Below the pieces are notes generated by a model. It was not told where the DNA came from. It saw only the letters and a program-made list of their open reading frames with translations, and searched no databases. The position numbers were made by a program, and so were the translations under genes. Of a DNA stretch of 32,301 nt, positions 2,496-31,754 are shown piece after piece. Each line of letters opens with the position of its first letter. The stretch's first letter is position 1. Source of the DNA: a virus; the IMG/VR virus record IMGVR_UViG_3300006100_000043, one strand, 5' to 3'.

Positions 2496-2497
2496 GA

Positions 2498-4180: not shown

Positions 4181-4186
4181 AACGCC

Positions 4187-4609: not shown

Positions 4610-4938
4610 GAACGTTTAATTCAAAAGAAGCAAATACTGGTGCCATTCTTCATGATCTATATAAAGCAATTTGGCCAGAAGGTCCAAAAACTATGGGAAG
4701 CGATGTATCTAAAGCATCAGAGATCGCAACAAACCCAGACAAACGTCAGCACGCAAAAGATAGTCTTGAAAGCTTAAAAACGCTGCCTGGTTTAATTAAT
4801 GTGTATGCTAAAGACAAGGTAAATCGCATTAAGAATAGACTAAAAGGTTTAACGCCAGAAGGTCTTGATCCTGACACTGGTATGCTTCCCAACAATGGTG
4901 CTGATGATGCCGATGACGACACTACGACAGATGAGTAA
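4606..4938 (+). CDS. Hypothetical protein (110 aa), acidic C-terminus
   Basis: ATGA overlap with the HNH gene stop; C-terminal DDADDDTTTDE. Confidence 0.6.
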   Translation: MRTFNSKEANTGAILHDLYKAIWPEGPKTMGSDVSKASEIATNPDKRQHAKDSLESLKTLPGLINVYAKDKVNRIKNRLKGLTPEGLDPDTGMLPNNGADDADDDTTTDE

Positions 4939-6040
4939 AATGAAAAAAACAAGCGCAATTTCTAGAGATGAAGCCCTCAAACTTGCTCATAACATGCGCA
5001 AGAGGATTGATTTCTTTACAGAAAACCCAACAGCAATCAATGAAGCTGATTTTAAGAAACTCAGTGACACATATGATAGTCTGCGTGAACAGCATCGCAT
5101 CACTGACGATGATCTAGACGGTACTCCTGCTCCTAAGAAAGAGATAAGACCGACCAGCACTGAACCAGTTGATCTTGAACAAGCATATTATTCACAACCT
5201 GAAGTTCAAGAAGAAGAAGAAATGAACCGCGCTAATGGCCTTGACAGAAATAGCGATTTTGCTTTGCCATTTAAAATAGGTTACAACTTTGAAACTGGTC
5301 AGATCGATAGAGCCGGTCTTTTTAAAACAATTTCAGAACGCAAAGCAGCATTTGATAACAAACATTACGAAGGTGTTGACCCATCAATATTTCCTGACAT
5401 TCGAGAAGCAGAAGCAATGGGCATAAATCCCCAAACTTACATTAGAGCAAGAAGTATTGGTGCATCACACGATTATTTGACACAAGCGCATGTGATGAGT
5501 CTAAGACCACACACTATCCAGCTGGATTCCACTCCTTTGAATTCAGAAAGAGAGGGAATTGGCAAAATTCAATTCTCGGAAACCCCGGTTGGTGAAGCTG
5601 TTAAAAATTATATTGGCTATATGGAAGCAAACGGAACGCCAATGTACACAAGAAGCGAGAGCACTGACATTGAGCCAGCTTCAGGGTTTACTCCTATTCG
5701 TTTTGCTTGCATCAGACCTTTTCACGCAGGTTTGGCTGAGCAAAAGGGTGTTACCGTTGGTGAATTGACAGATGCATGGCACAATAACGGTTTTCACCCG
5801 TTGGCGCAATACAGCAGTGATCACACATTGCCAATTACAAAATATATTGTTGCACGTGACATGGGAATTGACCACCAAACCACTAGAAGACTGCTTTCAA
5901 GCGTACAACACATACCACTTGACAGTTTTAAGGGTCTGATGATCAAAGGACACTCGCCAGAAGAAATTCTGGGTGGTGCTACCAAATTTAAGCAGTTTGA
6001 GATGCCACAATCCCAAGAAAACCCGCAAATTGGTGAATAA
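4931..6040 (+). CDS. Hypothetical protein (~370 aa)
   Basis: Track ORF 4865..6040. I prefer the in-frame ATG at 4931 (MSKMKK...), which overlaps the upstream stop (ATGAGTAA); ATG 4940 is also possible. Confidence 0.65.
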   Translation: MSKMKKTSAISRDEALKLAHNMRKRIDFFTENPTAINEADFKKLSDTYDSLREQHRITDDDLDGTPAPKKEIRPTSTEPVDLEQAYYSQPEVQEEEEMNRANGLDRNSDFALPFKIGYNFETGQIDRAGLFKTISERKAAFDNKHYEGVDPSIFPDIREAEAMGINPQTYIRARSIGASHDYLTQAHVMSLRPHTIQLDSTPLNSEREGIGKIQFSETPVGEAVKNYIGYMEANGTPMYTRSESTDIEPASGFTPIRFACIRPFHAGLAEQKGVTVGELTDAWHNNGFHPLAQYSSDHTLPITKYIVARDMGIDHQTTRRLLSSVQHIPLDSFKGLMIKGHSPEEILGGATKFKQFEMPQSQENPQIGE

Positions 6041-6354
6041 TGGACTGGTTAGAACGTTACGCGATGGCAAAAGGGGACGACATCCCCACTTTGCTTGGCA
6101 AAATTAAGAATAACGCCAATACGTATTTTCCAAACGCTAACGCAGCACCACATCAATGGGTTGCTAGATATTCTATGACTGCAAAAGAACATGGTGCTGA
6201 AAACCATGAAGAACTTAGACAAGCTTGTTATAAGAATTCTGATGAAGCGCGTTGGATGGCACAAAACAAACACAAATCTTATTACTCACACACAAGAATG
6301 TGGTATGAGCTTGGAGACTTACATTCAAAAGCACAGATAGAGGCACAACAATGA
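6040..6354 (+). CDS. Hypothetical protein (104 aa)
   Basis: TAATG overlap start; ATGA overlap at its 3' end with the next gene. Confidence 0.65.
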   Translation: MDWLERYAMAKGDDIPTLLGKIKNNANTYFPNANAAPHQWVARYSMTAKEHGAENHEELRQACYKNSDEARWMAQNKHKSYYSHTRMWYELGDLHSKAQIEAQQ

Positions 6355-7079
6355 CAGACCGCATTATTGGTAAATTAGGTAAACTTGATCCTCGGAGACC
6401 CGCGGGGCTTCACGCACTCGCTTTTTATCAGCACAATCCTCTTCCTGCAGCCCCAAACAAGGTAGATGTTCCTCAAATAAACGATTGGGGAATGTTAGGA
6501 AATGACAAGTATGGGGATTGCACTTTTGCTGGTATTGTTCACGCCAGAATGGCTCACGCTGCTTTCTTGGGTATCGACGAGACCTTCCCCTCCGACACCG
6601 ATGTGGAGAACGCGTACCTTTCTTATACTGGAGGAAAAGATCAAGGAGCAGTAGAGGCCGATCTTCTCAAATACTGGCAAAACAACGAATTGTTCGGAAA
6701 GAAGCTTGCAGCTTTCGCTCCTACAGATCATGCTGACCAGGATGAGCTTCGTAGCGTTATTTCGTCGTATGGACTTGCGTACATTGGTGTACAGCTCCCC
6801 GTTACGTTCCAAGAGCAATTCATCAACAACCAACCATGGGATCTTACGGGTACTCCTGCAGATAATCAGATCGAAGGTGGCCATTGCGTCATTCTTGTTG
6901 GATATGATAAAGATCATGCACAATGTATAACATGGGGTAAAGTGCAACAGATTACGTGGAGATGGCTGCAAAGCTACATGGAAGAGAGCTGGGCTCTCAT
7001 CACTCCAGAGATTGCCGGAAAGGGTCTCTATGGCGATCTTCGCTTGGACACCCTAATTGCTGACCTTAAGGAACTATAA
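6351..7079 (+). CDS. Papain-like / transglutaminase-like Cys-His peptidase domain protein (242 aa)
   Basis: Candidate nucleophile in YGDCTFAG (G-x-C-x-x-F-A motif). Candidate catalytic His in GGHCVILVGYDKD, resembling the papain DHAVAAVGY region. Cys precedes His (non-permuted). Confidence 0.6.
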   Translation: MTDRIIGKLGKLDPRRPAGLHALAFYQHNPLPAAPNKVDVPQINDWGMLGNDKYGDCTFAGIVHARMAHAAFLGIDETFPSDTDVENAYLSYTGGKDQGAVEADLLKYWQNNELFGKKLAAFAPTDHADQDELRSVISSYGLAYIGVQLPVTFQEQFINNQPWDLTGTPADNQIEGGHCVILVGYDKDHAQCITWGKVQQITWRWLQSYMEESWALITPEIAGKGLYGDLRLDTLIADLKEL

Positions 7080-8092
7080 TGGCTACAATCCCAAAGAGAA
7101 TGAGTGAGCTGCTGGAAGAGCAGAAATATGCCAGTGGATTGGCAAGTGGTCTTAACGATTTTGCGCTTGGATCAGATGCGGTTGCAGCTGCTCAAGGTGG
7201 CCTAGACCCTGTATCTGACGTAGAAGCAGGAGCAGCAGATGTTGCTGCAGGTGCAGTAGACGTTGGTGAAGCAGCTGCTCCAGAGGTTGAATCCTTGGCA
7301 AGCAAGGCATGGAGTGGTATTAAAGGATTGTTTGGTGATGGCGGTGCTTCAACCACCGCAGATACAGCAACGACTACCGCAGATACAGCGTCTACAGCTG
7401 GTTCAGGTCTTTACGATGCAGCTGGTAAAGAAATTCCTTCAACATTAGGAAATTCTGCAGAAACTGGTACTGGTTCTACCGGTGGTAGCATGTGGAGCAA
7501 ACTCAAGGGACTTGGTCAAGCTGCTGGTGGTGGTGTAGCCGGTGGTCTTGCAGACAGAGTTAAGAATTACGTTTCAAATGGTAATAGCAGCTCATCAGTT
7601 CCTGCAACAATGGGGCCATACGGTGGAGCCGGTGGTGGTGGCGCTGCTGTACGCATTGGGCCTATGCTTGGTAGCAAGGAAGCCAACGCTGGCATGGAAC
7701 AACAGATTTTGCAACAATTGTCACAACAGTCAAAGCTTCTTGACATGGTTCTTGAAGTGTTGTGCGGATGTGGTCAGCCAACAGCAGGTAACTACAAGGG
7801 AATGCCACACTGTGTTCCAGGAACTGGCTGTGCAACCAACATTGCTTTCTCAAAATCAAATCCAACTGGTGAAAACTGCTGCAGTTGCGGCAACCCAGAT
7901 GCAGCGGGTGCATTCCAGGGTCAACCTATTTGTGCACCTGGTCAAGGTTGTAACGATCACTGGGAGCTTGGAAAGGGTCGCAAGTGGAACCCATTCATGG
8001 AATCTCCACAAGAGAAGATCCAAGATCACGACAATTGGGCTAGCCAGACCAATCACGGTGAAACAGAGATGCCAAAGACCACGTGGGAATAG
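7079..8092 (+). CDS. Gly/Ala/Thr-rich protein with duplicated Cys-knuckle C-terminus (337 aa)
   Basis: N-terminal 200 aa are low-complexity G/A/S/T. The C-terminus contains CGCGQP...HCVPGTGC and CCSCGNP...ICAPGQGC, a duplicated CxPGxGC module. Confidence 0.7.
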   Translation: MATIPKRMSELLEEQKYASGLASGLNDFALGSDAVAAAQGGLDPVSDVEAGAADVAAGAVDVGEAAAPEVESLASKAWSGIKGLFGDGGASTTADTATTTADTASTAGSGLYDAAGKEIPSTLGNSAETGTGSTGGSMWSKLKGLGQAAGGGVAGGLADRVKNYVSNGNSSSSVPATMGPYGGAGGGGAAVRIGPMLGSKEANAGMEQQILQQLSQQSKLLDMVLEVLCGCGQPTAGNYKGMPHCVPGTGCATNIAFSKSNPTGENCCSCGNPDAAGAFQGQPICAPGQGCNDHWELGKGRKWNPFMESPQEKIQDHDNWASQTNHGETEMPKTTWE

Positions 8093-8093
8093 C

Positions 8094-8987
8094 ATGAAGT
8101 ACGCAGAACTTGGACAGGGTAACCATTCAGACGATGATAGTCTAGAAGCCATTGAGAATCACGAAGAAGGTTTCGGTATCCCTGGTCAATCTGCTGTGGG
8201 CCACATTGGTTTTGTAAGAAGAGCTGACGTTGGCAACCAGGATGAAAACTCAACGGGTATAACAGCGCCAACAGGTCATCACACTATCAAATTAACAGAA
8301 GAGCCAGGAATTGTATCAAACGAAGGACTTAGCAGTGTTAGCCCAGGTTCTTTGTCACCACTTATCAATGGAGCACTAGGAAGCAATATGAATACAAGAA
8401 TTGCATACGTAATGGAGAATGGTGAGCCGTTCTGCAATCACTGTGAACGTAGTTTCGTTCCAGCTAATTTGACACGCATCGCATGCACTCATTGTGGTTG
8501 CGGTGCACCACAGGACGATCATGGTTTGGGTGAAAACAACTTCAGTCATGTCGAGGGTGATGTTAAAGAACACGTGCCAGCAGCTGATAAACCTTTCATC
8601 AAAGAAGAAACTAAGCTAAGCTTCGTTGACATGGCATTGCAGACATTCCAAAAGCAATCTAACGACAGTGAACTATACTACCGTGGTTACAACGATGCAC
8701 ACGCTGGCAAGCCACTCGATGAAGACCTCGCATTGTTGAGCGATGACTACTACAATGGTTATGATCAACACAAGTTCTACAACAAGACACCACAGCAAAG
8801 CACTGGTCAAAAGTTGTACGACCTTAAGCCAAACAGCAATGACATTCCACGTGGTGGGAACATGACACCTGGTGAAGCAGACCGCGGTCCACTTGAATTG
8901 ACTGATGGATTTAACCACGCTACTGCTTCGGTTAGACTTGCTTCTATCTTCCCCGTTGATGTAATTGAGAAGTTTTTTGAGGTATAA
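8094..8987 (+). CDS. Hypothetical protein (297 aa) with CxxC...CxxC zinc ribbon
   Basis: Real start taken as ATG 8094 (MKYAELGQG...), 1 nt after the upstream stop. Track ORF 7542..8987 extends upstream through the previous gene in another frame. Motif CNHCERSF...CTHCGCGAP. Confidence 0.65.
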   Translation: MKYAELGQGNHSDDDSLEAIENHEEGFGIPGQSAVGHIGFVRRADVGNQDENSTGITAPTGHHTIKLTEEPGIVSNEGLSSVSPGSLSPLINGALGSNMNTRIAYVMENGEPFCNHCERSFVPANLTRIACTHCGCGAPQDDHGLGENNFSHVEGDVKEHVPAADKPFIKEETKLSFVDMALQTFQKQSNDSELYYRGYNDAHAGKPLDEDLALLSDDYYNGYDQHKFYNKTPQQSTGQKLYDLKPNSNDIPRGGNMTPGEADRGPLELTDGFNHATASVRLASIFPVDVIEKFFEV

Positions 8988-8988
8988 T

Positions 8989-9729
8989 ATGGAAATCTGT
9001 AATGTTTGTGATAGCGGTTTACTCGTTGTAAAGATGAGCTCTGCAGGCAAGGAAGCATTTTGCTCATCATGCCGACGTATTGTAGAGAGCGCTACACTTG
9101 GTTTTAAGTTTGCTCTTACCGAAGGTGACGATGGTATTGTAGAGTGCAAGGGTCCAGACAACCGTAGAGGCTGGAAGGGTCCCGGTAAGAAGGCACGTTG
9201 CTTTACTTACGAAGAAGGAAATCAGGAAGAAGAGAAGAAAGCCCTGCAAAAAGCCAAGGACTCTGCTTATGCTCACCAACATGCTCGTGGTGCTTCTAAA
9301 ATCGTAAACGCTACTGCTTACTTCACAGGTGGGCCTGAAAGCATGTCTGCACCTGCTGCTGCTTCTTCTCTTGTGGGAAAATCAAATGGATCTCCTATTC
9401 GTCCTGGTGGCAACCCAACCAACCCAATGGCTCCTGGCGCACAACCAAATCCTGTATCACCTATTATGCACCCTGGCAAGAGTCCAATTGAACCTGGACC
9501 AATTCGTCCTGGTGGCGCTGGCTTGCACGGTGAAGTTCCTGCTGCTCCTGGTGGAATGCAAATGGGTGACCTTAATGGTGCTAACCCTCTTAACAGCGGT
9601 ACAACTGCTAGCAGAAAGTTGATTATGCTAGCCAATGAATTAATTGCTCATGAAGAAATGGGCGACCCCTTCTGCACACAGCACAATTCTAGAGCTAGTC
9701 AATGTAATCATCTACATGAGGCGCACTAG
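8989..9729 (+). CDS. Hypothetical protein (246 aa): N-terminal zinc ribbon, Pro/Gly-rich middle
   Basis: ATG 8989 (MEICNVCDSG...CSSCRR) 1 nt after the upstream TAA. Repeated PIRPGG segments. Confidence 0.65.
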   Translation: MEICNVCDSGLLVVKMSSAGKEAFCSSCRRIVESATLGFKFALTEGDDGIVECKGPDNRRGWKGPGKKARCFTYEEGNQEEEKKALQKAKDSAYAHQHARGASKIVNATAYFTGGPESMSAPAAASSLVGKSNGSPIRPGGNPTNPMAPGAQPNPVSPIMHPGKSPIEPGPIRPGGAGLHGEVPAAPGGMQMGDLNGANPLNSGTTASRKLIMLANELIAHEEMGDPFCTQHNSRASQCNHLHEAH

Positions 9730-9756
9730 TAATTAGGAAAACAGAAAGATTCCAAT

Positions 9757-10467
9757 ATGAACTACGACGAAATTGAAATCCAAGCTAAGACTGCTGCCGC
9801 AGATAACGGCTGGTTCAACGGCTCTTCAGAAAGTATCTTTGCTAGATTAGACAGACTGCAAGAGATCCTTGACTCAACACGCACAGCAGCCAGCCACCCC
9901 AACACCAACGAGAGAGACCTCGAGCGTTTTGCCAATATCCTCACAGAGCTTGGCGCCGAGAAGGAAGCCCTAGAGAAGCTCGCATCAGAGTATGTTGACT
10001 TTGACACTGAGCAGTACCTTGACAGTCTCCCTGGCGGAACAATTGCTAAGCAATACCGTGTTAGCAGCGCAGGTGTACTTGACCTCGGTGAAGACGATGG
10101 TAGCCTTTTGTACCGCACAGCTTCTTCGATCAACAGAGAATATGAAGATGCAGACTGGATTAACTTCGTTACTGCTGGTGCTGAAGTCTGGGTAGAAGAC
10201 CAGAACCTTCGTTTGCTTGACAACCAGCTTAACACTCGTGAGGCAGCTGTTTACTACGTTGAACAACGCACAATGCCAATCTTGGATGTAACCAAGCGTG
10301 CAGCCATTATTGACAACTTTGTTGACAATGTAGAAATTTGCCGTAGAGCAAAGAAGGAAGGCAGCAAGTTCCGTGGAATTAAGTCCGCTAACGCTCAAAA
10401 ACTGTCTGCCAACTATGTTAACGAAGCCTTGAACGACTCTTTCGGAGATGGCCTTAACTGGTTGTAA
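9757..10467 (+). CDS. Hypothetical protein (236 aa)
   Basis: ATG preceded by AGGAAAACAGAAAG. The conserved 10-mer AGTAATTAGG sits 20 nt upstream. Confidence 0.7.
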   Translation: MNYDEIEIQAKTAAADNGWFNGSSESIFARLDRLQEILDSTRTAASHPNTNERDLERFANILTELGAEKEALEKLASEYVDFDTEQYLDSLPGGTIAKQYRVSSAGVLDLGEDDGSLLYRTASSINREYEDADWINFVTAGAEVWVEDQNLRLLDNQLNTREAAVYYVEQRTMPILDVTKRAAIIDNFVDNVEICRRAKKEGSKFRGIKSANAQKLSANYVNEALNDSFGDGLNWL

Positions 10468-10468
10468 T

Positions 10469-10978
10469 ATGACAGAGACTTGGCACGGTTTTAGAGTTGT
10501 TGGTGCCGTAGAAGATGACACAACAACAAAACCAGTAGAACAACCACCGCTTATTAAGCAATTGCAAGAATTGCTAGCTGATGCTGCGTTGTTTTATCAT
10601 TCAGTTCACGAATTCCACTGGAATGTTTCCGGATTGGATTTCTACGAATACCACAAACTGTTTGATGAAATTGTAAGCGATGTATACGATAGCATCGATC
10701 CAATTGCAGAGAATATCCGCAAACTTGGTGGTCGTGTTAAGTATAAAATGAGTGAGCTTGTCGATATCGCTAATTTGCAAGAACCTGCAGAAGGTGGCAC
10801 TGAAGCGAAAACCTTGACATCTGAACTTATTAGGCTAAACTCTAAGCTCATTAATACTTTGATGAATACTTTCAATTTGGCGAACAAACTCAACCAACAG
10901 GGTATTGCCAACTTCATTGCCGAACGAATTGACCAGCACCAGAAATGGGAGTGGTTCCTAAGAGCCTCTGTTGAATGA
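10469..10978 (+). CDS. dps: Dps / ferritin-like DNA-protection protein (about 169 aa)
   Basis: LQELLADAALFYHSVHEFHWNVSGLDFYEYHKLFDEIVSDVYDSIDPIAENIRKLGG aligns residue-for-residue with the Dps ferroxidase-centre region (HWN...HxxFDE...AERIRxLGG). The C-terminal WEWFLRASVE resembles Dps FLWFIESNIE. In-frame ATG 10448 is an alternative start. Confidence 0.8.
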   Translation: MTETWHGFRVVGAVEDDTTTKPVEQPPLIKQLQELLADAALFYHSVHEFHWNVSGLDFYEYHKLFDEIVSDVYDSIDPIAENIRKLGGRVKYKMSELVDIANLQEPAEGGTEAKTLTSELIRLNSKLINTLMNTFNLANKLNQQGIANFIAERIDQHQKWEWFLRASVE

Positions 10979-11208
10979 TGGAAAGCGTTTCCCAGAATAT
11001 TGGTAATGTAGTGGCTATCCTTACAGCCATTATGAGTGAGCAAGAAGACCTAGCATATGAAATGGTCTTAGATTCTGATCCTATCGAATTGTTCAGTTCG
11101 CTCACTGGTATCCTGCTTAGCTCTCTTAACCATTTAACAAATCTTACTGGCATTACTACCGATGAATATATCAAAGATCTTGGTATGCTCGCTTTTAAGT
11201 CATTATGA
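10975..11208 (+). CDS. Hypothetical small protein (77 aa)
   Basis: ATGA overlap at both ends. Confidence 0.5.
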   Translation: MMESVSQNIGNVVAILTAIMSEQEDLAYEMVLDSDPIELFSSLTGILLSSLNHLTNLTGITTDEYIKDLGMLAFKSL

Positions 11209-11504
11209 GCGAACTCAACGAATTGCCAGAGGGTATTTATATTAATAAAGAACCCAGCGAATTCTATTATGAAATAGAATTTGAATTTATAAATGAAAAC
11301 AAATGCAATAAATGCAATATTGTTTATGAAAGTTTCCTCATGTCAAATGCCAGCAGACATGAGGGAAATATTGTGATCCGTCCTTCTAACAAAAGTGTAT
11401 GGAGAAATACTTTATCAAAAAACCGTGATAAGGCATTAAAAAACTTGCAAGAAACTTTAACCTTAAAGTTTGACAACCATAAGCAAAGGTGTAATAATGA
11501 TTAG
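11205..11504 (+). CDS. Hypothetical small protein (99 aa) in a strongly AT-rich segment
   Basis: ATGA-coupled start. Local GC is visibly lower (~30%) than the flanks. Contains CNKCN. Confidence 0.5.
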   Translation: MSELNELPEGIYINKEPSEFYYEIEFEFINENKCNKCNIVYESFLMSNASRHEGNIVIRPSNKSVWRNTLSKNRDKALKNLQETLTLKFDNHKQRCNND

Positions 11505-11661
11505 GTACAGTACACAACCGACCAAGGGTCCAAATGTCTTGTCAGACAGCCCGACAGCTCCCAAAGTAACAACAAAAGATGTTCGCGGTCTGCTTGGCAT
11601 TAATGAAGATGAGAAATCTCAGACTTTGTTAGACCTTGATGCGGAAGACAACAACGAATAG
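11497..11661 (+). CDS. Hypothetical small protein (54 aa)
   Basis: Track ORF 11470..11661 begins with TTG. The first ATG, at 11497, overlaps the upstream stop. Confidence 0.35.
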   Translation: MIRYSTQPTKGPNVLSDSPTAPKVTTKDVRGLLGINEDEKSQTLLDLDAEDNNE

Positions 11662-12526
11662 GACAATAGTGACGAAACAACTGGCTGAAAAAGATCCAGC
11701 AACACACATTGTAATTCCAGATACCCAGGCCAAGGACGGTGTTCCAACAGATCACCTCACATGGATCGGTAACTATATCGTGGAAGAATTTCACAACCAA
11801 GATGTGAAGATCATCCACCTTGGTGACCACGCTGATATGCCAGCCCTTTCAATGTACGATAAGGGCAAGAAGAGCATGGAGGGTCGTCGTGTTAAAGCAG
11901 ACATTGAAGCTGCGAATGAACACTGGCGCATCCTCAATCAACCGTTATACGATTATAACGACAACAAGCGCAAGAGCAAACACGCTATCTGGAATCCAGA
12001 GCGTCATATCTTGCTCGGCAACCACGAAGATCGTATCAACAGAGCAACAGAAATGGATGCTCAGATCGATGGGTTGTTCAGCACCGATGATCTTGATTAC
12101 GCAAGAAGTGGCTGGAGAGTAAGCCCGTTTAAGAAAATTCTGTGGTTGGATGGAGTGGCTTACAGCCACTTTTTTTATAACCACATGACGGGTGTACCCT
12201 ATGGTGGCAATATCGATACGCGTCTTAAGACTATCGGCCACTCATTCACTATGGGTCATCAGCAGACTTTCCTTTATGGTATGCGATACGTCAACGACAG
12301 CAATGAGCCTTACTCACAGCATGGGCTTGTAGCTGGTGCTTGCTACTTGCATGACGAAGACTACAAGGGTCCGCAGGGTAATGCTCATTTCCGTGGAATC
12401 GTTGTAAAACATGGTGTTCAAAATGGCAGTTATGACATCCAGCAAATTTCTCTTGATTCTTTGTGCCGTAGATACGAAGGTATGGGCGTAGAACGGTTTA
12501 AAAAGCTCAAGTATCCGCATATGTAG
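11636..12526 (+). CDS. Calcineurin-like metallophosphoesterase (about 290 aa)
   Basis: Motifs in order: IVIPDTQ...DG (I), HLGDHADMP (II, GDxxD), LGNHEDR (III, GNHE), TMGHQQ (IV, GH), GACYLHDE (V). Alternative start GTG 11669 with AGGACA upstream would remove the 26-nt overlap with the previous ORF. Confidence 0.75.
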   Translation: MMRKTTTNRTIVTKQLAEKDPATHIVIPDTQAKDGVPTDHLTWIGNYIVEEFHNQDVKIIHLGDHADMPALSMYDKGKKSMEGRRVKADIEAANEHWRILNQPLYDYNDNKRKSKHAIWNPERHILLGNHEDRINRATEMDAQIDGLFSTDDLDYARSGWRVSPFKKILWLDGVAYSHFFYNHMTGVPYGGNIDTRLKTIGHSFTMGHQQTFLYGMRYVNDSNEPYSQHGLVAGACYLHDEDYKGPQGNAHFRGIVVKHGVQNGSYDIQQISLDSLCRRYEGMGVERFKKLKYPHM

Positions 12527-12529
12527 TAT

Positions 12530-13732
12530 ATGGATAAAAATAACGAACGCCAGAGGAAGAACTTTCGCTGTGTCTTTAATCCTTACGTGACTAAAGATAA
12601 CCGCGATGGCGTTATTCGTTCCATCATTTCTCAGTTTGAAGGTTATGAAGCTGAGCCTGAAGTCACACTACATGACGATGGTTTTATCATCACGCTTACC
12701 ACTGGTCCTGAATTATCTCCAACATTAATCAGAGATAAAATTCTGTGGAATCAATTCGTTGACAGCGTAACAGCTTCCGATGCTATCCGCAAGATCCAGA
12801 TCATACGTATCCCTAAGAATTCTGGTTTGATGGATTTTGGTGGTCGTGTGGAAGGACAAGGCAGTATTGGTGGTTTTGGTCCTGAAGTCGATCCTATTGT
12901 TGGCAATACTGGTGTGGATGAGAAACTCAACACGCCATTGAACTACAAGCCTAAGTATCAGATCGATGGAGATCCTAATGATACATTGGGACACCATGCC
13001 AGTGTTAGAAAATACGCTGACCCAACAGATCTTACTTCTCAAGACCAATCTTTTGTACACGGTCTTACTCCAGCTGATTTGACAAGTGATGCCAACAGGG
13101 TTGAAACTGGCCCTCAGGATCCATTGGAAACTGGTAATCACAAATCGTTGCCAAAGGTATTCGCTAGCTTTAAGCGTATTGCAATCGATACAGACGCTGG
13201 AAGTGCTTTTACTTTAAACAAGCCCAATGGGTTTCAAAGCGTTAATGATCCACCCAACCAAGGACCATTGCACCAACGTGCCACTCCAGCAACTGGTATT
13301 GGTGGTGGAGCCCCTATTAGCGGTGCTAGCTGGTATGTAACACAGCCTGGCAATGAGCAAGGAACCGAGCTTGGTGCTGAACGTAACAAGGATTACGATT
13401 TGAGCAGCTCATCAGCACCCCTTGGTGGGATTACTGCTTCGTTGTATGAAGGTCCTGCAGCTGAACAATACGAGAAGTCTATCAAAGACGAATACGGCGC
13501 AGAAACAGCTGAAGACCAAAATAAAGATCAGATCAAAAAGAACATCGTTTACGCATCTTCTGATGGAGACAGTGATACCGATGACGAACAAGGTATTAAA
13601 GCAGAATACGGTTCAACGCTAGATATGCTAGGTGTTGGAGACCACCCAATTGGTGGTGCCGCATATGGTTCTTTCTTTGGACTTAATGAAACATACGATT
13701 ATCAAGGCGATATAGATGAGTACAACCTATAA
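12530..13732 (+). CDS. Hypothetical protein (400 aa), acidic Ser/Asp-rich C-terminus
   Basis: Long ORF; no recognised motifs. Confidence 0.7.
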   Translation: MDKNNERQRKNFRCVFNPYVTKDNRDGVIRSIISQFEGYEAEPEVTLHDDGFIITLTTGPELSPTLIRDKILWNQFVDSVTASDAIRKIQIIRIPKNSGLMDFGGRVEGQGSIGGFGPEVDPIVGNTGVDEKLNTPLNYKPKYQIDGDPNDTLGHHASVRKYADPTDLTSQDQSFVHGLTPADLTSDANRVETGPQDPLETGNHKSLPKVFASFKRIAIDTDAGSAFTLNKPNGFQSVNDPPNQGPLHQRATPATGIGGGAPISGASWYVTQPGNEQGTELGAERNKDYDLSSSSAPLGGITASLYEGPAAEQYEKSIKDEYGAETAEDQNKDQIKKNIVYASSDGDSDTDDEQGIKAEYGSTLDMLGVGDHPIGGAAYGSFFGLNETYDYQGDIDEYNL

Positions 13733-14264
13733 GGTTTACGAAGCAGGTAAAGATCCGTCAAAGTACGTACCAGGAGATTTTATTCTGGTGTCGACCAAGG
13801 GAGTCCTTGCTAAGTTTATCCGTTTTGGTCAATTCATCCGTTATCACGGTAAAATGAAGCCCTTTGCTCACTGGAACCATGCTGCTATGGTTATCAGTGA
13901 GAATGGCGACATCGTTGAAGCTGTTGGTCGCGGTGTTGTAGTTAGCAACATTGGTGAGTACAAGAACGTAGAATATTACTACGTTTCTACTAAGCTTAAC
14001 AAGCAAAGCCGTGACCAAGCGGTAGCTGCTTGTAAGAGTTTCATTAAGGATAAGTATGGTTGGCTAACCATCTTGAGTATTGCTACGGAATTGGCAACTG
14101 GCATCAAGATGCAGTTCACCAATAGCAACACAATGATCTGTAGCGCCGTAGTAGCACAATCCCTATGGGCAGGTGGAGTCGTATTCGACCGCAACCCATA
14201 TCAAATGATGCCTGCTGATTTGGCAGCATCTTTCAACATTCTGACGGAATTGCCAAATACTTGA
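13716..14264 (+). CDS. Permuted papain-fold amidase of the YiiX/YaeF (peptidase C92) type; candidate endolysin/cell-wall hydrolase
   Basis: GDFILVST...HWNHAAMVI...VEAVGRGV...MICSAVVAQSLW...MMPADLAAS follows the YiiX order (GDIIF...SH.G..V..EAVG...YCSEVVW...SPQAVF). His precedes Cys (circular permutation). Confidence 0.7.
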   Translation: MSTTYKVYEAGKDPSKYVPGDFILVSTKGVLAKFIRFGQFIRYHGKMKPFAHWNHAAMVISENGDIVEAVGRGVVVSNIGEYKNVEYYYVSTKLNKQSRDQAVAACKSFIKDKYGWLTILSIATELATGIKMQFTNSNTMICSAVVAQSLWAGGVVFDRNPYQMMPADLAASFNILTELPNT

Positions 14265-14295
14265 TTTTTTGCATTTTATGCAATAAATTGAAAAT

Positions 14296-14463
14296 ATGCA
14301 AAAAGCTACAATTACCATCAGTTATGATGCCCGTGACCACCAGAGCGAAGAGCTCGCTAGTCAAGAGATCAGCGAAACTATCGCTGGCCTTCTCAACAGC
14401 TTGCGTACTCAAGTAAATGGCGTCCAGGTAACCGTGAAGTTCCAAAATAACAAGGAGAAATAA
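14296..14463 (+). CDS. Small hypothetical protein (55 aa) between amidase and holin-like genes
   Basis: ATG 14296. Translation MQKATITISYDARDHQSEELASQEISETIAGLLNSLRTQVNGVQVTVKFQNNKEK. The stop overlaps the AAGGAG ribosome-binding site of the next gene. Not in the track (under 60 aa). Confidence 0.4.
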   Translation: MQKATITISYDARDHQSEELASQEISETIAGLLNSLRTQVNGVQVTVKFQNNKEK

Positions 14464-14465
14464 TA

Positions 14466-14819
14466 ATGTCTAACCCATTGAACACAACAACAACTAGAGC
14501 TACAGGTCGTGCTTTTGTTGCTGCTATCGTTGGTGCTTTGCTTGCTTGGGGTGCAACCAAGTGGGGCAATCTTAACACTGGCACATTTGCAGCTTTGACA
14601 CCTGTTGCTTCTGGTCTGTATTACACAGCAGTTACTGCTCTTGAGAAGAAGTATCCTAACCTTGGTTGGTTGCTTGGTACGCTTCCTCAGCCCAAGGCTC
14701 CTACTGTGTTCCCTACACCAGAGCCCACACCTGCTCCAACACCAGCTCCAACTGCCGCAAAGGCTCCTGCTGCCAAGAAGACAGCTGCTGCAAAGAAGGC
14801 TGCTCCTAAGAAGAAGTAG
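14466..14819 (+). CDS. Holin-like two-TM membrane protein with Lys/Ala/Pro-rich histone-H1-like tail (117 aa)
   Basis: Strong RBS AAGGAGAAATAATA-ATG. Two hydrophobic helices (AFVAAIVGALLAWGATKW; FAALTPVASGLYYTAVTAL). C-terminal PTPEPTPAPTPAPTAAKAPAAKKTAAAKKAAPKKK. Confidence 0.55.
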   Translation: MSNPLNTTTTRATGRAFVAAIVGALLAWGATKWGNLNTGTFAALTPVASGLYYTAVTALEKKYPNLGWLLGTLPQPKAPTVFPTPEPTPAPTPAPTAAKAPAAKKTAAAKKAAPKKK

Positions 14820-14826
14820 TTCTTAA

Positions 14827-14899
14827 TCCCTGGTAGCTCAATTGGCAGAGCAACGCACTGTTAATGCGTGGGTTCCTGGTTCGAGTCCAGGCTGGGGAG
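14827..14899 (+). tRNA. tRNA-Asn (anticodon GTT)
   Basis: Manual cloverleaf. Acceptor tccctgg/ctgggga, D-arm gctc-aattggca-gagc, anticodon arm acgca-ctGTTaa-tgcgt, T-arm cctgg-ttcgagt-ccagg, discriminator G. No encoded CCA. Confidence 0.8.
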
Positions 14900-14904
14900 C
14901 TTTA

Positions 14905-14978
14905 GGTCTTGTAGCTCAGTTGGTTAGAGCACTTCCCTGTCACGGAAGGGGTCGTGGGTTCAAGTCCCATCAAGATCG
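14905..14978 (+). tRNA. tRNA-Asp (anticodon GTC), CCA encoded at 14979-14981
   Basis: Acceptor ggtcttg/caagatc, anticodon arm cttcc-ctGTCac-ggaag, T-loop ttcaagt, discriminator G followed by cca. Confidence 0.8.
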
Positions 14979-14982
14979 CCAT

Positions 14983-15053
14983 TGAGGGATGGTGTAAAGG
15001 CAGCACAAAAGACTTTGAATCTTTTAGTCTAGGTTCGATCCCTAGTCCCTCAG
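14983..15053 (+). tRNA. tRNA-Gln (anticodon TTG), CCA encoded at 15054-15056
   Basis: Acceptor tgaggga/tccctca, anticodon arm aaaga-ctTTGaa-tcttt, T-arm ctagg-ttcgatc-cctag, discriminator G then cca. 71 nt. Confidence 0.75.
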
Positions 15054-15057
15054 CCAT

Positions 15058-15130
15058 GGGACTGTAGCTCAGTGGTAAGAGCGGAAAGCTTATATCTTTC
15101 TGGCCGTAGGTTCAATTCCTACCAGTCCTA
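15058..15130 (+). tRNA. tRNA-Ile (anticodon TAT, reads AUA), CCA encoded at 15131-15133
   Basis: Acceptor gggactg/cagtcct (G1-U72), D-arm gctc-agtggtaa-gagc, anticodon arm gaaag-ctTATat-ctttc, T-arm gtagg-ttcaatt-cctac, discriminator A then cca. Confidence 0.7.
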
Positions 15131-15221
15131 CCATTTAAAACATGCTCTGAGTTATAGCAGTAATTAGGCAATATATGCCTATATTCAGCGTTCCTATTGG
15201 GACAATATAAGGAGTAACACG

Positions 15222-16643
15222 ATGACCTCGATGTTCGATTTTGACGATTCAGTAAACATTGCTTTTGATGCAAAGATTGCTGGTAAGAATCTCGTAACCG
15301 CTAAGCACGAATTGCTTACAAAGACCGGTGAGTTCCTTTTCTTGGCCCACAGCGATCACGAGCTTGCTAGCCGCATGCAAATGGTAGAGAAGGACATCGA
15401 GAAGGTTGCCCACCGTCGTCTTGCTTCAGTTAGCGACTCTAAGGCTAAGCTTGTCCGCGCTGTATACGATGAATGGCAGATTCGTCACGCTCGTTGTGAA
15501 ATGTGCAAGCTTGCATGGGGTTTGAACCCCATCTCTGACCTTGGTCAAGCGATTACTGACATTGGTGGCGCTGCTGGTAAGGCAACCAGATCCGTTGTTA
15601 ACGACCTGTCTGGCGCTGCTGGCGCTGTTGGTCGTGGTGTACGTGATCTTGGCCACGATGCTGCAGGACTTGGTAGAAACCTTTCTGGCGATGCTAAGAC
15701 TGTTGCTCGTGGTGTTGGTGAAGCTGCCGGTACCGCTGTTAATGGTCTCGAGAACGTTGGTAAGGGTGCAATTGACATTGCAAAGAAGGCTCCTGGCGTT
15801 CTCGACAATGTTGCCCGTGGTGTTGGCAATGCAATTGGTCAAGGTGCTCACGACACCGCAGGTGCTTTTGATACTGCTAGACACGATACTGCAGGTGCTG
15901 CTGACGCAGCAGGCCGTGGTATCTCACGTGGATTCGACGTAGCTAGACACGACACCGCAGGTGCTTTTGATACTGCTAGACACGATACTGCAGGTGCTGC
16001 TGACGCAGCAGGCAGAGCTATTGGTCAAGGTGCTAACGATGTTGCACGTGGATTTGATGTAGTGCGTCACGATACTGCAGGTGCTGCTGACGCAGCAGGC
16101 CGTGGTATTAGCAATGATGCTAAGTCCGTTGCTCGTGGTTTGGGCCAGGGTGCTGGTGCTGCTGTAAATGCCGGTGAAAGTTTCATGGGCGATGTAGCTC
16201 GTGGATTCGACGTAGCTAGACACGATACTGCAGGTGCTGCTGACGCAGCAGGCAGAGCTATTGGTCAAGGTGCTAGAGATGTTGCAGGCGTTGCTAAGAC
16301 TGTCGGTACCGATGCTGTTAAGGGTGTAGCTGCTCCGTTCGCCGGGGCTGTTAGCGCCGTTGGATCAATGGGAAGCCAATTTATTCAGGGCTTTGAGAGC
16401 AAGGAAGACAACGACAACAAGAGAGGACCTAGCACATCAACTGGTGGTCCTGGCGGATCAGGTGCACCTGCTGCTGGATCTGCAGGTACTATGCGATCGA
16501 CTCCTGCTTCTCAAGCGATTAACAGTGCAAAAGCTAAGTTGACACCTGACACTGATCACGACAATGACACAGGCGATGCAAACGAAGCCAACAAGACAAT
16601 TGGCGACAAGAGAACATCGTACGATAGAAATTTTCCCTGGTAA
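15222..16643 (+). CDS. Gly/Ala-rich tandem-repeat protein (473 aa), probably abundant virion-associated
   Basis: Strong RBS TAAGGAGTAACACG-ATG. The central 250 aa are degenerate 11-residue repeats with at least six copies of HDTAGA(A/F)D(A/T)A(G/R) and four of RGFDV(A/V)R. C-terminal Gly/Ser/Asp-rich tail. Confidence 0.8.
   Translation: MTSMFDFDDSVNIAFDAKIAGKNLVTAKHELLTKTGEFLFLAHSDHELASRMQMVEKDIEKVAHRRLASVSDSKAKLVRAVYDEWQIRHARCEMCKLAWGLNPISDLGQAITDIGGAAGKATRSVVNDLSGAAGAVGRGVRDLGHDAAGLGRNLSGDAKTVARGVGEAAGTAVNGLENVGKGAIDIAKKAPGVLDNVARGVGNAIGQGAHDTAGAFDTARHDTAGAADAAGRGISRGFDVARHDTAGAFDTARHDTAGAADAAGRAIGQGANDVARGFDVVRHDTAGAADAAGRGISNDAKSVARGLGQGAGAAVNAGESFMGDVARGFDVARHDTAGAADAAGRAIGQGARDVAGVAKTVGTDAVKGVAAPFAGAVSAVGSMGSQFIQGFESKEDNDNKRGPSTSTGGPGGSGAPAAGSAGTMRSTPASQAINSAKAKLTPDTDHDNDTGDANEANKTIGDKRTSYDRNFPW
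15849..16274 (+). repeat. Intragenic tandem DNA repeats (66-bp perfect duplicate with 99-bp period, plus two further 33-35-bp copies)
   Basis: 15849-15914 is identical to 15948-16013. Core gacacgatactgcaggtgctgctgacgcagcaggc recurs at ~15880, ~15979, ~16068 and ~16219. gcagagctattggtcaaggtgct occurs at 16011-16034 and 16251-16274. Confidence 0.85.
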
Positions 16644-16668
16644 CCACAAACCCAGGGTTTAGTGGTAC
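16644..16668 (+). terminator. Weak stem-loop after repeat-protein stop (ccctgg...ccaggg / aaacc-cag-ggttt) with only a 3-T tail
   Basis: Inverted repeats directly after TAA 16641-16643; poor T-run, so intrinsic-terminator status is doubtful. Confidence 0.2.
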
Positions 16669-16699
16669 AACTGCGAAAATTAAAAATGCTTTCAATCTA

Positions 16700-17392
16700 T
16701 TGAGAAATGCTTCTGGCACAACGCCAGCGCCTGGTTCTCTTGATTACGTCGATTCATTGTTACACATCACTTCACCTGCAGCAACTACTCAGACTAAAAC
16801 TCCAGCAGCAGCTGGATCGGATGAGGGTGAACTTAGCCCTTTGAAAAAAGAAGAGCTTCAGAAGGTAATCAACCAAGACCGTAGAATGCACATCAATGTT
16901 CCGCAGAGTGCAATTGATGAAGTTAACGCACCAGCAGATACCCCTCAAGAAGATCAGACTGAAAAAGCAGTTAAGTCTCGTCAAAAAGGAGAAGCAGAGA
17001 CTGCCAGGGCCAATGAATCTAAGGGTCCTATTAGACAGCCTACCACTCCAACGCCTGGTACAAAAACACCGACTAACGTGGCACCAGTTGCACCAGTTTC
17101 CAATAAGCCAGTAAAGCCTGTCGTTGCACCAATTCCAGCAGGCGTGGTAAAGACACCGATCGTTCCAGCTCAAACATCTCCTGTTAAGCCTGTTGTGCCG
17201 CAAGGCACACCAACAGGTTCTCCTGGTAAAACCGGTCCTGGCAAGGATCTCGGTTTTAAGTCTGTGCCAGCAACAACATCTCCTACTGTAAACATGAATC
17301 CTAAGCCCAAGGCTACTGCCCCAACTACATCAGGTACTGGAAGTAGTGCGGAGCAGGCCATTCAAAATGGCGCCGCGTTCCTAGGTGTATAA
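16700..17392 (+). CDS. Pro/Thr/Val-rich low-complexity protein (230 aa); start codon uncertain (TTG)
   Basis: Long open frame with no in-frame ATG until codon 62; the track start is TTG 16700. Motifs TPTPGTKTPT, PVKPVVAPIPAGVVKTPIVPAQTSPVKPVVP. Confidence 0.5.
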   Translation: MRNASGTTPAPGSLDYVDSLLHITSPAATTQTKTPAAAGSDEGELSPLKKEELQKVINQDRRMHINVPQSAIDEVNAPADTPQEDQTEKAVKSRQKGEAETARANESKGPIRQPTTPTPGTKTPTNVAPVAPVSNKPVKPVVAPIPAGVVKTPIVPAQTSPVKPVVPQGTPTGSPGKTGPGKDLGFKSVPATTSPTVNMNPKPKATAPTTSGTGSSAEQAIQNGAAFLGV

Positions 17393-29396: not shown

Positions 29397-31754
29397 ATGC
29401 CAAGAGAAGACTGGAGTGCATCTGCCGAGCTAGGCCGTATGAAAGCGGCTGGCATCACAGGTCCACGTAACCCAGTAACACGTCGTGTTGCAAACAGAGA
29501 ATTGCTTGATATGGCACGTACCCCTGGCGCTATGGGTGCCATGGGATCTAGTCCACTCTTAGGCCCCACTGAAGGACGTACAAGACTGAACTCTCTTAGT
29601 TCAGCCGATTTCCTCGGTGAGAATAGAATGTCGCGTACTGCTAACCGCAGAACTGCAGCAGCTACTGGATCAGACGCTCAGTGGGCTTTGCCTAAACTAC
29701 ACGACCCGTTTGAATACTGGCGTGAACGCACGTGGTGGTTCAACATGGAGGACCCAGACGAGCAGACCAGAAAGATCCGTGACTGGGCTCGCCTTCTTTA
29801 CACCACTCACTACCTAGTGCCTTCGCTCATTGATATTTATACTAGGTACCCTCTTTTGGACGTGGAGCTTATCCACCCAGACAAGAGAATCTCTGACTTC
29901 TATAACGATCTTTTCTTTGATGGTTTGAATTACAACGAGTTCTTGTTCGACCTTGGTCGTGAGCACTGGACTGTTGGTGAAGTATTCGCCATGGGATCAT
30001 GGCACGATGGTATCGGTGCATGGGAAGAAGACGAGATCATCAACCCCAATGATGTTATCGTAGCCAAGAACCGTGCTCTCAGAACGTATCAGTACCACAT
30101 CAAGGTGCCTCAGGAAATCAAGAAGCTGATCGAGCGTCGTGATCCTCCGCAGGAATATGCAATGCTTATGCAGCTCTACCCAGACGTTGTCGCCTGGGCT
30201 AGACAAGACAAGGAGATCCCAGTCTCCGATGTCATCATGAAGCAGATCAAGTTTAAGACTAACCCATGGAGCGAACATGGAACTCCTATTCTTCTTCGTG
30301 CTTTCCGTATGCTTATGCTCGAAGAGTCTCTCAACGCTGCTCAGGATGCTATTGCTGACCGTCTATATTCTCCCCTTATTCTGGCTACTCTGGGTCTGCC
30401 TGACGTAGACCAAGATGGTCCATGGATCCCTGACGCTCAGGAACTGCAGTCTTTACGTGATGACCTCGGTATGGCCATTAACTCAGACTTCCGTCTGATG
30501 ACATATCACCATGGTTTGCAGATTCAGAATGCATTCGGGCGAGAGTCCATGCCAAGACTTGATGCTGACTTCATGCGTGTTGAGTCTAAGGTTATGCAGG
30601 TATTTGGTATTGGAGCAGACTTGCTTCAGGGCGGTAATGGCGGAACTTACGCTGCTGGTGCCCTTAACCGCGAGCTTATTACTCAGATGCTTTCAACATA
30701 CCAGCACAAGATCGAAAGCTTTATCCGTTCCCGAATGGAACCAGTAGCAGAAAGACAGGGTCACTATGAAATGCGTTCGGTGGGTGGCCAAATGGTACCT
30801 GTCATGGAAACTGTTCTCATGGTTGATGAAGAAACTGGTGCTGAATATGTTGAAGAACGACCCAAGCTGGCCATTCCGGAAGTAAGATTCCGTTCAATGA
30901 ACCTGAGAGATGAAACCATTGAACGTGGTTTCCTCCAGCAGTTGATGGCATCTGGTTTCCCAATCTCACTCAGCACGCTGGCTGTCAATATCCCAATTGA
31001 CTTCGATGATGAAATCGAAGCTCGAAAGGATGAGAAGATCAAGACCGTTGTCGCTGAGCAGCAGTACAAGCGTGAATTGTTCAACCGTCTTACTGTCCTA
31101 CAGCTCCCTATCCCGCCAGAGTATGTCCAGGAATACCAGGCTTACATGGCAATGCTCGAGAACCCTGCACTTGGTGCTCAGTTGGCACCCGGTGCTATGC
31201 AGAGCCTTGTAGTGCCACCACCAGCACCGAACCTTACTGGTGAAGCTATCGGCAACAGTGATGCAGCCATGGGTGCTCAGGTTTACCCAAGCGTTAATCA
31301 GATGGCACAACAGATGCAGCAGACGCAGCGTGGTACCGAGCGTCAGCGTCCACAGGAGTCATACGAACAGCGCAAGAACGCACCCAAGCCTTCTAAGAAG
31401 GGTCCAAAGAATGGTCCTAAGAAGAAGACAGCATCTGTATCTGGTTGGGATGATGATTACGACGATACTCCATTCGAGACCATCACGTATGGTGACCGCA
31501 TGAAGTTTGCAGTGCCATGGGAGAGCAAGAAGCGTAAGCGCATGAAGCTTGCTCGTGGTATGAAGATTATTGCTGACGATAGCTACGAAAAGTTTAATGA
31601 AGAAGAGTTCAAGAAGCACTTGGCATCAATTATGGATGAGCCGATGATTCAAGAACCAACAGATCTCAATGAACACAGCAGTGGTGAAGGTGGCATGGAC
31701 CAACCTGCGCGTAAGCAAGTAGATCCAACAAAAGAAGAACCTTTCCCTTCCTAA
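29397..31754 (+). CDS. Large virion-associated protein (785 aa), possibly a portal (head-tail connector) protein
   Basis: 2.36-kb ORF. The Arg-rich N-terminal ~100 aa, the central region (LMLEESLNAAQDAIADRL...) and the Gln/Ala/Met-rich C-terminal stretch (MAQQMQQTQRG) followed by a Lys-rich tail recall podovirus portal proteins. No detected motif is diagnostic. Confidence 0.6.
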   Translation: MPREDWSASAELGRMKAAGITGPRNPVTRRVANRELLDMARTPGAMGAMGSSPLLGPTEGRTRLNSLSSADFLGENRMSRTANRRTAAATGSDAQWALPKLHDPFEYWRERTWWFNMEDPDEQTRKIRDWARLLYTTHYLVPSLIDIYTRYPLLDVELIHPDKRISDFYNDLFFDGLNYNEFLFDLGREHWTVGEVFAMGSWHDGIGAWEEDEIINPNDVIVAKNRALRTYQYHIKVPQEIKKLIERRDPPQEYAMLMQLYPDVVAWARQDKEIPVSDVIMKQIKFKTNPWSEHGTPILLRAFRMLMLEESLNAAQDAIADRLYSPLILATLGLPDVDQDGPWIPDAQELQSLRDDLGMAINSDFRLMTYHHGLQIQNAFGRESMPRLDADFMRVESKVMQVFGIGADLLQGGNGGTYAAGALNRELITQMLSTYQHKIESFIRSRMEPVAERQGHYEMRSVGGQMVPVMETVLMVDEETGAEYVEERPKLAIPEVRFRSMNLRDETIERGFLQQLMASGFPISLSTLAVNIPIDFDDEIEARKDEKIKTVVAEQQYKRELFNRLTVLQLPIPPEYVQEYQAYMAMLENPALGAQLAPGAMQSLVVPPPAPNLTGEAIGNSDAAMGAQVYPSVNQMAQQMQQTQRGTERQRPQESYEQRKNAPKPSKKGPKNGPKKKTASVSGWDDDYDDTPFETITYGDRMKFAVPWESKKRKRMKLARGMKIIADDSYEKFNEEEFKKHLASIMDEPMIQEPTDLNEHSSGEGGMDQPARKQVDPTKEEPFPS

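Follow-up and report, generated by a model that had tools for sequence, protein, structure and literature searches.

The 32,301-nucleotide stretch of viral DNA recorded in IMG/VR as IMGVR_UViG_3300006100_000043 (hereafter the window, meaning the whole stretch at its full length) encodes a Dps-type mini-ferritin with intact ferroxidase ligands. Sequence comparisons place this protein in an old branch of the Dps family that is found almost only in phage and metagenomic sequence, whose metal ligands are invariant, and whose usual home is inside head-assembly proteins. The window protein itself is free-standing and begins with a conserved peptide. Based on these features, we tentatively propose that a Dps 12-mer may detoxify Fe2+ and H2O2 in association with the phage particle or the packaged genome, a reading to which we give slightly less than an even chance. 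Phage Dps proteins are already known and have so far been read as borrowed host stress genes that help the infected cell. A conserved head-linked Dps branch with a free form carrying an N-terminal peptide is not discussed in the literature searched.

Results

The window encodes a Dps-type mini-ferritin with intact ferroxidase ligands

The open reading frame (ORF) of interest starts with an ATG at position 10469, ends with a TGA at 10976-10978, and encodes 169 amino acids (aa). A first-pass annotation, made by a model from the DNA letters and their ORFs alone, had called a Dps gene at 10469-10978 on the plus strand. These coordinates correspond to an intact 169-codon frame, and the motifs quoted in that annotation are present as FHWNV (aa 49-53), EYHKLFDE (aa 60-67), and AENIRKLGG (aa 80-88). 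The start at 10469 is preferred over an upstream ATG at 10448 because homologues open with M-T/S-E/D-x-W and the recorded protein P0001 has the identical 169-aa sequence. Relative to the two closest relatives, the ratio of nonsynonymous to synonymous substitution rates (dN/dS) is ~0.11. Along with its neighbors g236, g99, and g54 (see below), the Dps gene is a real gene under purifying selection.

Several searches returned the same family. The Pfam Ferritin model PF00210 matches aa 29-166 (E=2e-18, 67 bits against a cut-off of 24.5), and the PHROG family phrog_3636, annotated as 'DNA-binding protein', matches at 5.5e-30. A sequence search of the PDB yielded 70 chains, and the native proteins listed were all members of the Dps family (NAP, Dlp, Dpr, and similar) rather than 24-mer ferritins, with P. 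aeruginosa Dps 8ff9 (1e-17) and H. pylori NAP (HP-NAP; 4e-16) as the best matches. The AlphaFold2 (AF2) model, a monomer built on 62 homologues, has a mean predicted local distance difference test (pLDDT) score of 90.4 and consists of four long helices plus a short helix in the B-C loop, which is a mark of Dps subunits; a fifth C-terminal E helix is absent. When this model was compared with the PDB using Foldseek, the top 50 matches were all Dps proteins (template modeling (TM) scores 0.84-0.94, root-mean-square deviation 1.3-1.6 Å; HP-NAP, TM 0.91). The bacterial proteins H. pylori NAP (1ji4/4eve), P. aeruginosa PA0962 (8ff9), Bacillus Dlp, and Listeria Dps share the fold and the BC helix with the window protein (TM 0.9), as well as the His-His-Asp-Glu ligands and the adjacent Trp. 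They differ from it in being only 17-29% identical, and the window protein is phage-encoded and belongs to a separate branch. The first-pass identification of the gene as a Dps, to be checked by just such a model search and structure prediction, is thus borne out.

Alignment with E. coli Dps and HP-NAP showed that the ferroxidase ligands H50, H62, D77, and E81, the loss of which would have spoken against the identification, are all kept. Together with W51 next to the first of them, these inter-subunit ligands show 100% conservation across 120 homologues. When 95 much more distant relatives are aligned, just five columns show no variation: the four metal ligands and one Phe. Because the invariant columns are almost all metal ligands, selection is likely to act on the metal site. 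By analogy with the family, we infer a working protein, including 12-mer assembly and iron chemistry. Twelve subunits would form a hollow shell in which every dimer interface would bind two Fe2+, coordinated by His50 and His62 from one chain and by Asp77 and Glu81 from its partner. Oxidation of the Fe2+ by H2O2 or O2 would then leave the iron stored as a ferric mineral, removing both Fenton reagents.

The protein belongs to a Dps branch distinct from cellular Dps

The first-pass annotation took the gene to be copied from a host stress gene. Dps is widespread among bacteria, and the assumption at that stage was that the phage had recently taken up a host dps gene and carried it as a passenger (moron). 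The data argue strongly in the other direction. The best cellular or solved Dps that was found shares only ~28-31% identity with the protein, and the third codon positions of the gene have a GC content (GC3) of 0.39, within the range of the phage (0.40 ± 0.06 for the window genes). The position of the gene is kept in about 50 related contigs with a dN/dS of 0.11, and its nearest relatives are confined to metagenomic or viral contigs. Taken together, identity, GC3, synteny, and dN/dS lead us to reject recent capture, which we regard as having next to no chance of being correct. The comparison with host Dps points the same way: in a neighbor-joining tree that has E. coli Dps and HP-NAP as its only two cellular outgroups, 92 of 100 bootstraps set these two apart from the 170 domains of the branch. 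The tree did not single out a sister group of the window lineage among the fused forms.

Membership in the branch is indicated by the shared motifs SIDPIAENI-KLG and EQG-I/V-ANF-I/L-AERID-HQKW-W together with a core identity of at least 36%. The core is 36-50% identical to 110 fused members of the branch versus 17-28% to the two cellular references. An exhaustive HMMER search that took in 1.84 billion cluster representatives found 61 representatives at E<=1e-30, corresponding to at least 61 clusters at 50% identity. Ten short representatives (38-48% identity) come from metagenomes only and have no NCBI or UniRef entry. A scan of GTDB (one genome per species) for exact 8-residue patterns, which detects close relatives only, gave a single match at 31%. 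No record with a member of this branch was found in a collection of 50,697 phages, and the Dps proteins of deposited phages (S-SRM01, C. tetani phages, a Bacteroides phage, Aeromonas BUCT695, and Streptomyces phages) are 24-32% identical to the branch by tblastn. The branch is apparently restricted to phages.

Relatives of the window Dps are built into head-assembly proteins

The first-pass annotation, although right about Dps, missed the feature that sets the nearest relatives apart: in other phages, most of them are Dps domains within long proteins, often fused to the Peptidase_S78 prohead protease, and encoded in head-gene modules in the loci that were checked. In a structure search of viral models, the best matches were proteins of 333-763 aa from 'uncultured Caudovirales phage', several of them named 'Prohead protease', with 31-48% identity over the Dps core. 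Most of the 61 representatives at E<=1e-30 are long: 54 exceed 200 aa and 44 exceed 300 aa, usually with the Dps domain in an internal position. Pfam analysis of the best 95 detected Ferritin in all 95, Peptidase_S78 in 20, Peptidase_S78_2 in 2, Mu-like_Pro in 1, and Phage_Mu_F in 2; Zeta toxin, HAD phosphatase, and several domains of unknown function (DUFs) were also present. By our own count in a further search, PF04586 and PF00210 occur together in 76 of the 120 relatives listed, and JGI names some of these proteins 'HK97 family phage prohead protease'.

Fusion layouts (Table 1) and gene context were read in IMG/VR loci. In L059 the gene order is TerL, portal, an 84-aa ORF, the Dps-S78 fusion, and the major head protein. 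L068, where TerL was not looked at, has portal, Dps-S78 fusion, and major head protein, and in L069 the major head protein follows the fusion. The core of these fusions (UniProt A0A6J7XDU5 and A0A6J7WIS1; L059, L068, and L069) is 45-50% identical to that of the window protein, with the same motifs and ligands. They differ in that their Dps domain is joined to a protease, scaffold, or MuF part and encoded between the portal and capsid genes, whereas the window Dps is free, has an N-terminal peptide of its own, and is encoded 18 kb from the portal. Other arrangements were also seen, among them two tandem Dps domains in P0121 (777 aa) and polyproteins of 1.7-1.95 kaa with a single Dps domain (P0192, P0210, P0216, P0218, and L088). 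No published discussion of Dps-prohead protease fusions was found in the literature searched.

The assembly of procapsids places prohead proteases and MuF-type proteins on the inside. For this reason, Dps domains fused to them should be carried into the head. In many other phages this Dps branch is a covalent part of the prohead protease (S78 or XkdF type), Mu protease I, or MuF. The genes for these fusion proteins lie between those for portal and capsid, and the proteins should bring Dps with them into the procapsid. The embedding of Dps in scaffold and protease polyproteins, and its tandem duplication in P0121, would also fit a purely structural hub, with the 12-mer serving as an oligomerization core for assembly factors and its iron chemistry being irrelevant. 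We consider such a hub improbable given that the columns invariant across the 95 members are the four metal ligands and one Phe. The nearest experimental precedent is the ferritin-like gp346 of phage G, which was detected in particles by virion proteomics (PMC12484599). The gp346 protein is a structural match to the window Dps model, and both it and the Lactobacillus phage Dps are 18-19% identical to the window protein in structural alignment.

The window Dps has no fusion to a prohead protease, MuF, or scaffold protein and does not lie between portal and capsid genes. Going by its sequence, it belongs to the head-linked branch while lacking the architectural feature of that branch.

A conserved N-terminal peptide marks the free-standing lineage

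The first 27 residues of the window protein, modeled by AF2 with low confidence, form a peptide in which F8 and R9 are conserved in 97% and 92% of 120 homologues, respectively. Matches to fused relatives and to 144-aa Dps relatives, which are without the peptide, start at aa 21-36 (mostly 28). The peptide is conserved only in the free-standing lineage of the window. In a sub-lineage with the same synteny (L056, 9716-10432; P0122), a Cys-rich, zinc-ribbon-like segment (CSC...CLHC) lies between the peptide and the Dps core.

N-terminal capsid-targeting sequences are known from the internal proteins of T4, where they are removed after a Glu by proteases of the T4 and phiKZ type. Compared with virion-internal proteins of T4 and phage G, the window peptide could likewise act as a capsid-targeting sequence. 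It has no sequence similarity to the T4 targeting sequences, and the idea of cleavage at A-V-E / D-D-T is a resemblance only to T4-type processing. An 'SNGFRD' string in the zinc-ribbon of the 234-aa protein encoded after the protease was considered as a match to the peptide motif and judged coincidental.

The composition of the peptide also bears on the suggestion in the first-pass annotation, one of several, that the phage may manipulate nucleoid compaction. DNA binding of the kind described for E. coli Dps needs a Lys-rich tail, and some Dps proteins do bind DNA. The N-terminal 27 residues of the window protein have an isoelectric point (pI) of 4.5 with one Arg and one Lys, the whole protein has a pI of 5.0 (4.6-5.7 across 120 homologues), and the chain has no C-terminal extension past helix D. 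In place of the basic Lys-rich N- or C-terminal tail of the E. coli-type DNA-binding subclass, there is an acidic conserved peptide. Because of the pI, the acidic N-terminal peptide, and the missing basic tail, DNA binding of this type is not expected and nucleoid compaction is unlikely. The 'DNA-binding protein' label of phrog_3636 favors a Dps that, like the E. coli protein, would cover or condense DNA, either to shut off the chromosome of the host or to make the phage DNA compact. Set against the acidic character of the protein and its bare C-terminus, this label leaves such a function with only a slim chance.

Dps lies in a conserved gene string

The genes surrounding Dps are compiled in Table 1. 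Over about 50 related loci the gene order is g300-g254-g236-Dps-g77-g99-(g54)-phosphoesterase-g400-g182-g117. The closest association is with the upstream gene g236, which adjoins Dps wherever the upstream flank is present (54-85% identity across loci). It has 190 homologues, nearly all of the 120 listed being 236 aa long, and its dN/dS is 0.08-0.11 relative to the two closest relatives. Downstream, g77 directly follows Dps in the loci of the lineage, except in L049 and L057 where there is an insertion between them, with 47-79% identity. The g99 gene is syntenic in most loci (dN/dS 0.10-0.15), and g54 is called in relatives at 54-66 aa and detected by tblastn at 43-81% identity in many loci (dN/dS 0.08-0.14, both ratios again for the two closest relatives). 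The ATGA coupling described in the first-pass annotation is real, and the 660-bp interval before the phosphoesterase is fully coding; it holds three small genes rather than two, g54 having been missed. Similarly, a coupled module reaching the phosphoesterase is indeed conserved. It is larger than the four genes first proposed, and its tightest partner, g236, had gone unmentioned. A scan of 4000-17500 for promoters and terminators gave counts at the level of shuffled sequence and no operon boundaries.

Table 1. Features of the window and Dps fusion layouts in related IMG/VR loci
Feature	Position or size	Strand	Evidence or remarks
Dps-family mini-ferritin gene	10469..10978	+	PF00210 2e-18; PDB Dps-family matches; AF2 pLDDT 90.4; dN/dS ~0.11
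Lineage-specific N-terminal peptide, aa 1-27	10469..10549	+	core motif W-N/H-G-F-R-V-V-G-A-V-E-D-D-T
Dps core	10550..10975	+	AF2 helices A 27-52, B 58-85, short BC 94-100, C 113-140, D 144-168
His50 (ferroxidase ligand) and Trp51 codons	10616..10621	+	align with E. coli Dps H51/W52, HP-NAP H25/W26
His62 codon (ferroxidase ligand)	10652..10654	+	aligns with E. coli H63, HP-NAP H37
Asp77...Glu81 codons (partner-subunit ferroxidase ligands)	10697..10711	+	align with E. coli D78/E82, HP-NAP D52/E56
g236, conserved all-alpha protein	9757..10467	+	stop 1 nt before Dps ATG
g77, small helical protein	10975..11208	+	ATGA-coupled to Dps (overlap 10975-10978)
g99, small protein	11205..11504	+	ATGA-coupled to g77 (overlap 11205-11208)
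g54, third small gene	11497..11661	+	overlaps g99 end by 8 nt
Metallophosphoesterase, 285 aa	11669..12526	+	phrog_221 1.4e-40; GTG start
g400 and g182, downstream end of conserved syntenic block	12530..14264	+	synteny
Portal protein	29397..31754	+	phrog_2833 9e-167
L058, L059, L062, L068 fusions	465-539 aa		Ferritin then S78
L069, L080 fusions	735-813 aa		S78 (weak match) then Ferritin, acidic scaffold-like tail
L088 fusion (5711-10933 of that locus)	1740 aa		polyprotein with internal Ferritin; followed by 89-aa ORF, then major head protein

A link between g236 and Dps is also seen in P0146, an 866-aa protein with an N-terminal Dps domain followed by two g236-like repeats (33% identity; E=4e-23 and E=6e-10). 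The P0146 gene is separated from TerL, which lies upstream, by one 97-aa gene, and in another contig a g236-like protein without Dps occupies the same place after TerL. This arrangement suggests that g236 is tied functionally to Dps and, loosely, to the packaging and head region; P0146 represents a single protein cluster. Its Dps and g236-like parts are separated by Cys-rich linkers. The two genes upstream of g236, g300 and g254 (8088-9729), each carry CxxC...CxxC zinc-ribbon-like motifs. Profile searches for g77, g99, g54, g400, g254, g300, the phosphoesterase, and g236 in other Dps-bearing loci returned nothing meaningful.

For the phosphoesterase, the GTG at 11669 is the most likely start because the 285-aa orthologues start likewise. 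The protein is 100% identical to the orthologue in L001 and L009, yet dS is ~1 (dN/dS 0.002; nucleotide identity 82-92%), so that constraint on this gene is far above that on any of its neighbors. Further downstream, g182 (13716-14264) has conflicting weak annotations: phrog_1128, 'enoyl-CoA hydratase-like', at 5.6e-17, and Pfam Peptidase_C92 at 2e-4, below the cut-off. Peptidase_C92 is a permuted papain-like amidase. The possibility that g182 encodes a ClpP-like head protease was rejected, since the Pfam signal is a weak Peptidase_C92 and the head protease of the lineage is found after the portal.

The window derives from an uncultivated lineage of large tailed phages

The location of the gene in a phage, as first annotated, is confirmed by the portal gene, the tRNAs, and synteny with viral contigs. 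The window is 97% coding with all genes on the plus strand, and the best cultured relatives of its portal protein are from Bixzunavirus (cluster C) mycobacteriophages at 40% identity. A nucleotide search against 50,697 phage records gave no match to the window, which therefore has no close cultured relative. Close relatives of the Dps are encoded on metagenomic and IMG/VR contigs of 107-138 kb. From these sequence data, the window is assigned to an uncultivated lineage of large tailed phages. In a 95%-identical relative, L089, the head module after the portal consists of a protease, proteins of 234, 438, and 172 aa, and then the major head protein.

The head protease of this lineage has no Pfam match. 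In L089 (5359-6021) it is 220 aa long and matches only the first 208 positions of the 1263-position phrog_2774 profile. The long polyprotein behind this profile, presumably the ~1,280-aa Bixzunavirus protein (Cali gp92), appears to be split into separate genes in L089. The portal matches in L126, L143, L144, L146-L150, L152-L154, and L157-L164 extend over 3.0-3.5 kb for ~670-785 residues versus 2.35 kb in the window, which implies an insertion of ~0.7-1.15 kb (an intein, intron, or homing element) in the portal genes of those relatives. The window also contains a cluster of four tRNA genes at 14827-15133 (Asn-GTT, Asp-GTC, Gln-TTG, and Ile-TAT, the last with an uncommon anticodon) and a 1189-aa ORF (17403-20972) with a GreA/GreB N-terminal coiled-coil domain at residues 315-373 (Pfam 6.2e-14), a transcript-cleavage-factor module that is unusual inside a giant phage protein. 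In the relatives L004-L006 (about 1-3000 and 16577-17380), 5-6 genes for 2OG-Fe(II) oxygenases are found around the Dps block, together with a short-chain dehydrogenase and methyltransferases, so that iron-dependent enzymes cluster close to the mini-ferritin.

Discussion

Combining these observations, we envision a Dps that is transcribed together with g236 and three small genes and linked to them by translational coupling, with the N-terminal peptide and/or g236 taking the place of the covalent link found in other phages. Its function would be to protect phage DNA from damage driven by iron and peroxide rather than to compact the host nucleoid. Association with the particle in the window lineage is the least secure part of this proposal. 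The more general claim, that many uncultivated tailed phages load Dps into their heads, mostly by fusion, with the window lineage relying on its N-terminal peptide and/or g236, is possible and in our judgment less likely than not.

Several results weigh against an association with the particle. The Dps gene lies ~18.4 kb upstream of the portal, such that the form with the N-terminal peptide is encoded outside the head module, among a phosphoesterase, an amidase-like gene, and tRNAs, with the protease and capsid genes following the portal. The peptide motif is absent from the other ORFs of the window and from the head proteins of L089, and no binding partner for a targeting peptide was identified by sequence similarity in either set. 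For g236, no Pfam or PHROG family was found, its AF2 model is weak (pLDDT 69.6; predicted TM score (pTM) 0.37), and Foldseek returned nothing below E=0.5 against the PDB. Of 31 loci outside the lineage, 11 have a free-standing branch member of 144 aa, and the number rises to 14 when lengths up to 157 aa are included; because these forms are common, fusion or targeting is not obligatory. The gene context of two of them, L077 and L060, gave no annotation. Even a domain fused to a protease could be cleaved off and lost from mature heads.

Many of the same results fit a Dps that never enters the particle and instead buffers iron and peroxide in the infected cell, where it would shield phage DNA during replication, as well as phage enzymes that depend on metals, or keep iron available to them. 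Its neighbors look non-structural (the phrog_221 phosphoesterase, the amidase-like g182, and tRNAs) and the head module is distant; a demand for iron is implied by the 2OG-Fe(II) oxygenase genes near the block in L004-L006; and the 144-aa free-standing forms have no targeting-like extension. Free-standing Dps proteins are likewise encoded by other tailed phages, including Lactobacillus phages Semele/LP65, 'Gratiaviridae' and other gut phages, cyanophage S-SRM01, and C. tetani phages. Those of the gut and Lactobacillus phages have been read in the literature as protection against iron and peroxide (PMC8008677, PMC6669764). The reported phage proteins stand apart from the branch by their low identity and are not reported as fused to head proteins. 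A cytoplasmic auxiliary role is the main contender, one we find quite conceivable though still short of probable. It is at odds with the dominance of head-protein fusions in the branch, a simple soluble ferritin would need neither a conserved N-terminal peptide nor a fixed pairing with g236, and there is no sign of host capture, the usual origin of auxiliary genes.

The proposed association of Dps with the particle has a parallel in the encapsulins, which combine an HK97-type shell with iron-oxidizing cargo of the ferritin superfamily. Their cargo is loaded by a short terminal targeting peptide (Family 1 Flp cargo) or by covalent fusion (Flp-shell fusions; PMC8346489), and these two modes are mirrored by the free and fused forms of the Dps branch. 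There are also clear differences. Encapsulins are organelles of cells that lack a portal, a tail, and a genome, and the Flp proteins they carry are not Dps. Targeting is by C-terminal peptides in Family 1 and by larger N-terminal domains in Family 2, whereas the window peptide is short and N-terminal. The window and its relatives, by contrast with the HK97 shells that lack portal, terminase, and tail genes, have a portal, head protease, and major head protein, and the relatives are phage contigs of the size given above. The element is a true phage whose Dps would work at most like the ferritin-like cargo of encapsulins.

If the domain is indeed located inside capsids, virions would carry their own iron- and peroxide-detoxifying cargo, an enzymatic defense against Fenton damage to the packaged DNA. 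This would bear on the decay of viruses in iron- and peroxide-rich waters. Phage particles would also constitute a larger iron pool than assumed, as each could hold hundreds of iron atoms. Finally, the system would represent a true-virus counterpart, and possibly an evolutionary forerunner, of ferritin-loaded encapsulins, and the origin of encapsulin cargo loading would become experimentally approachable.

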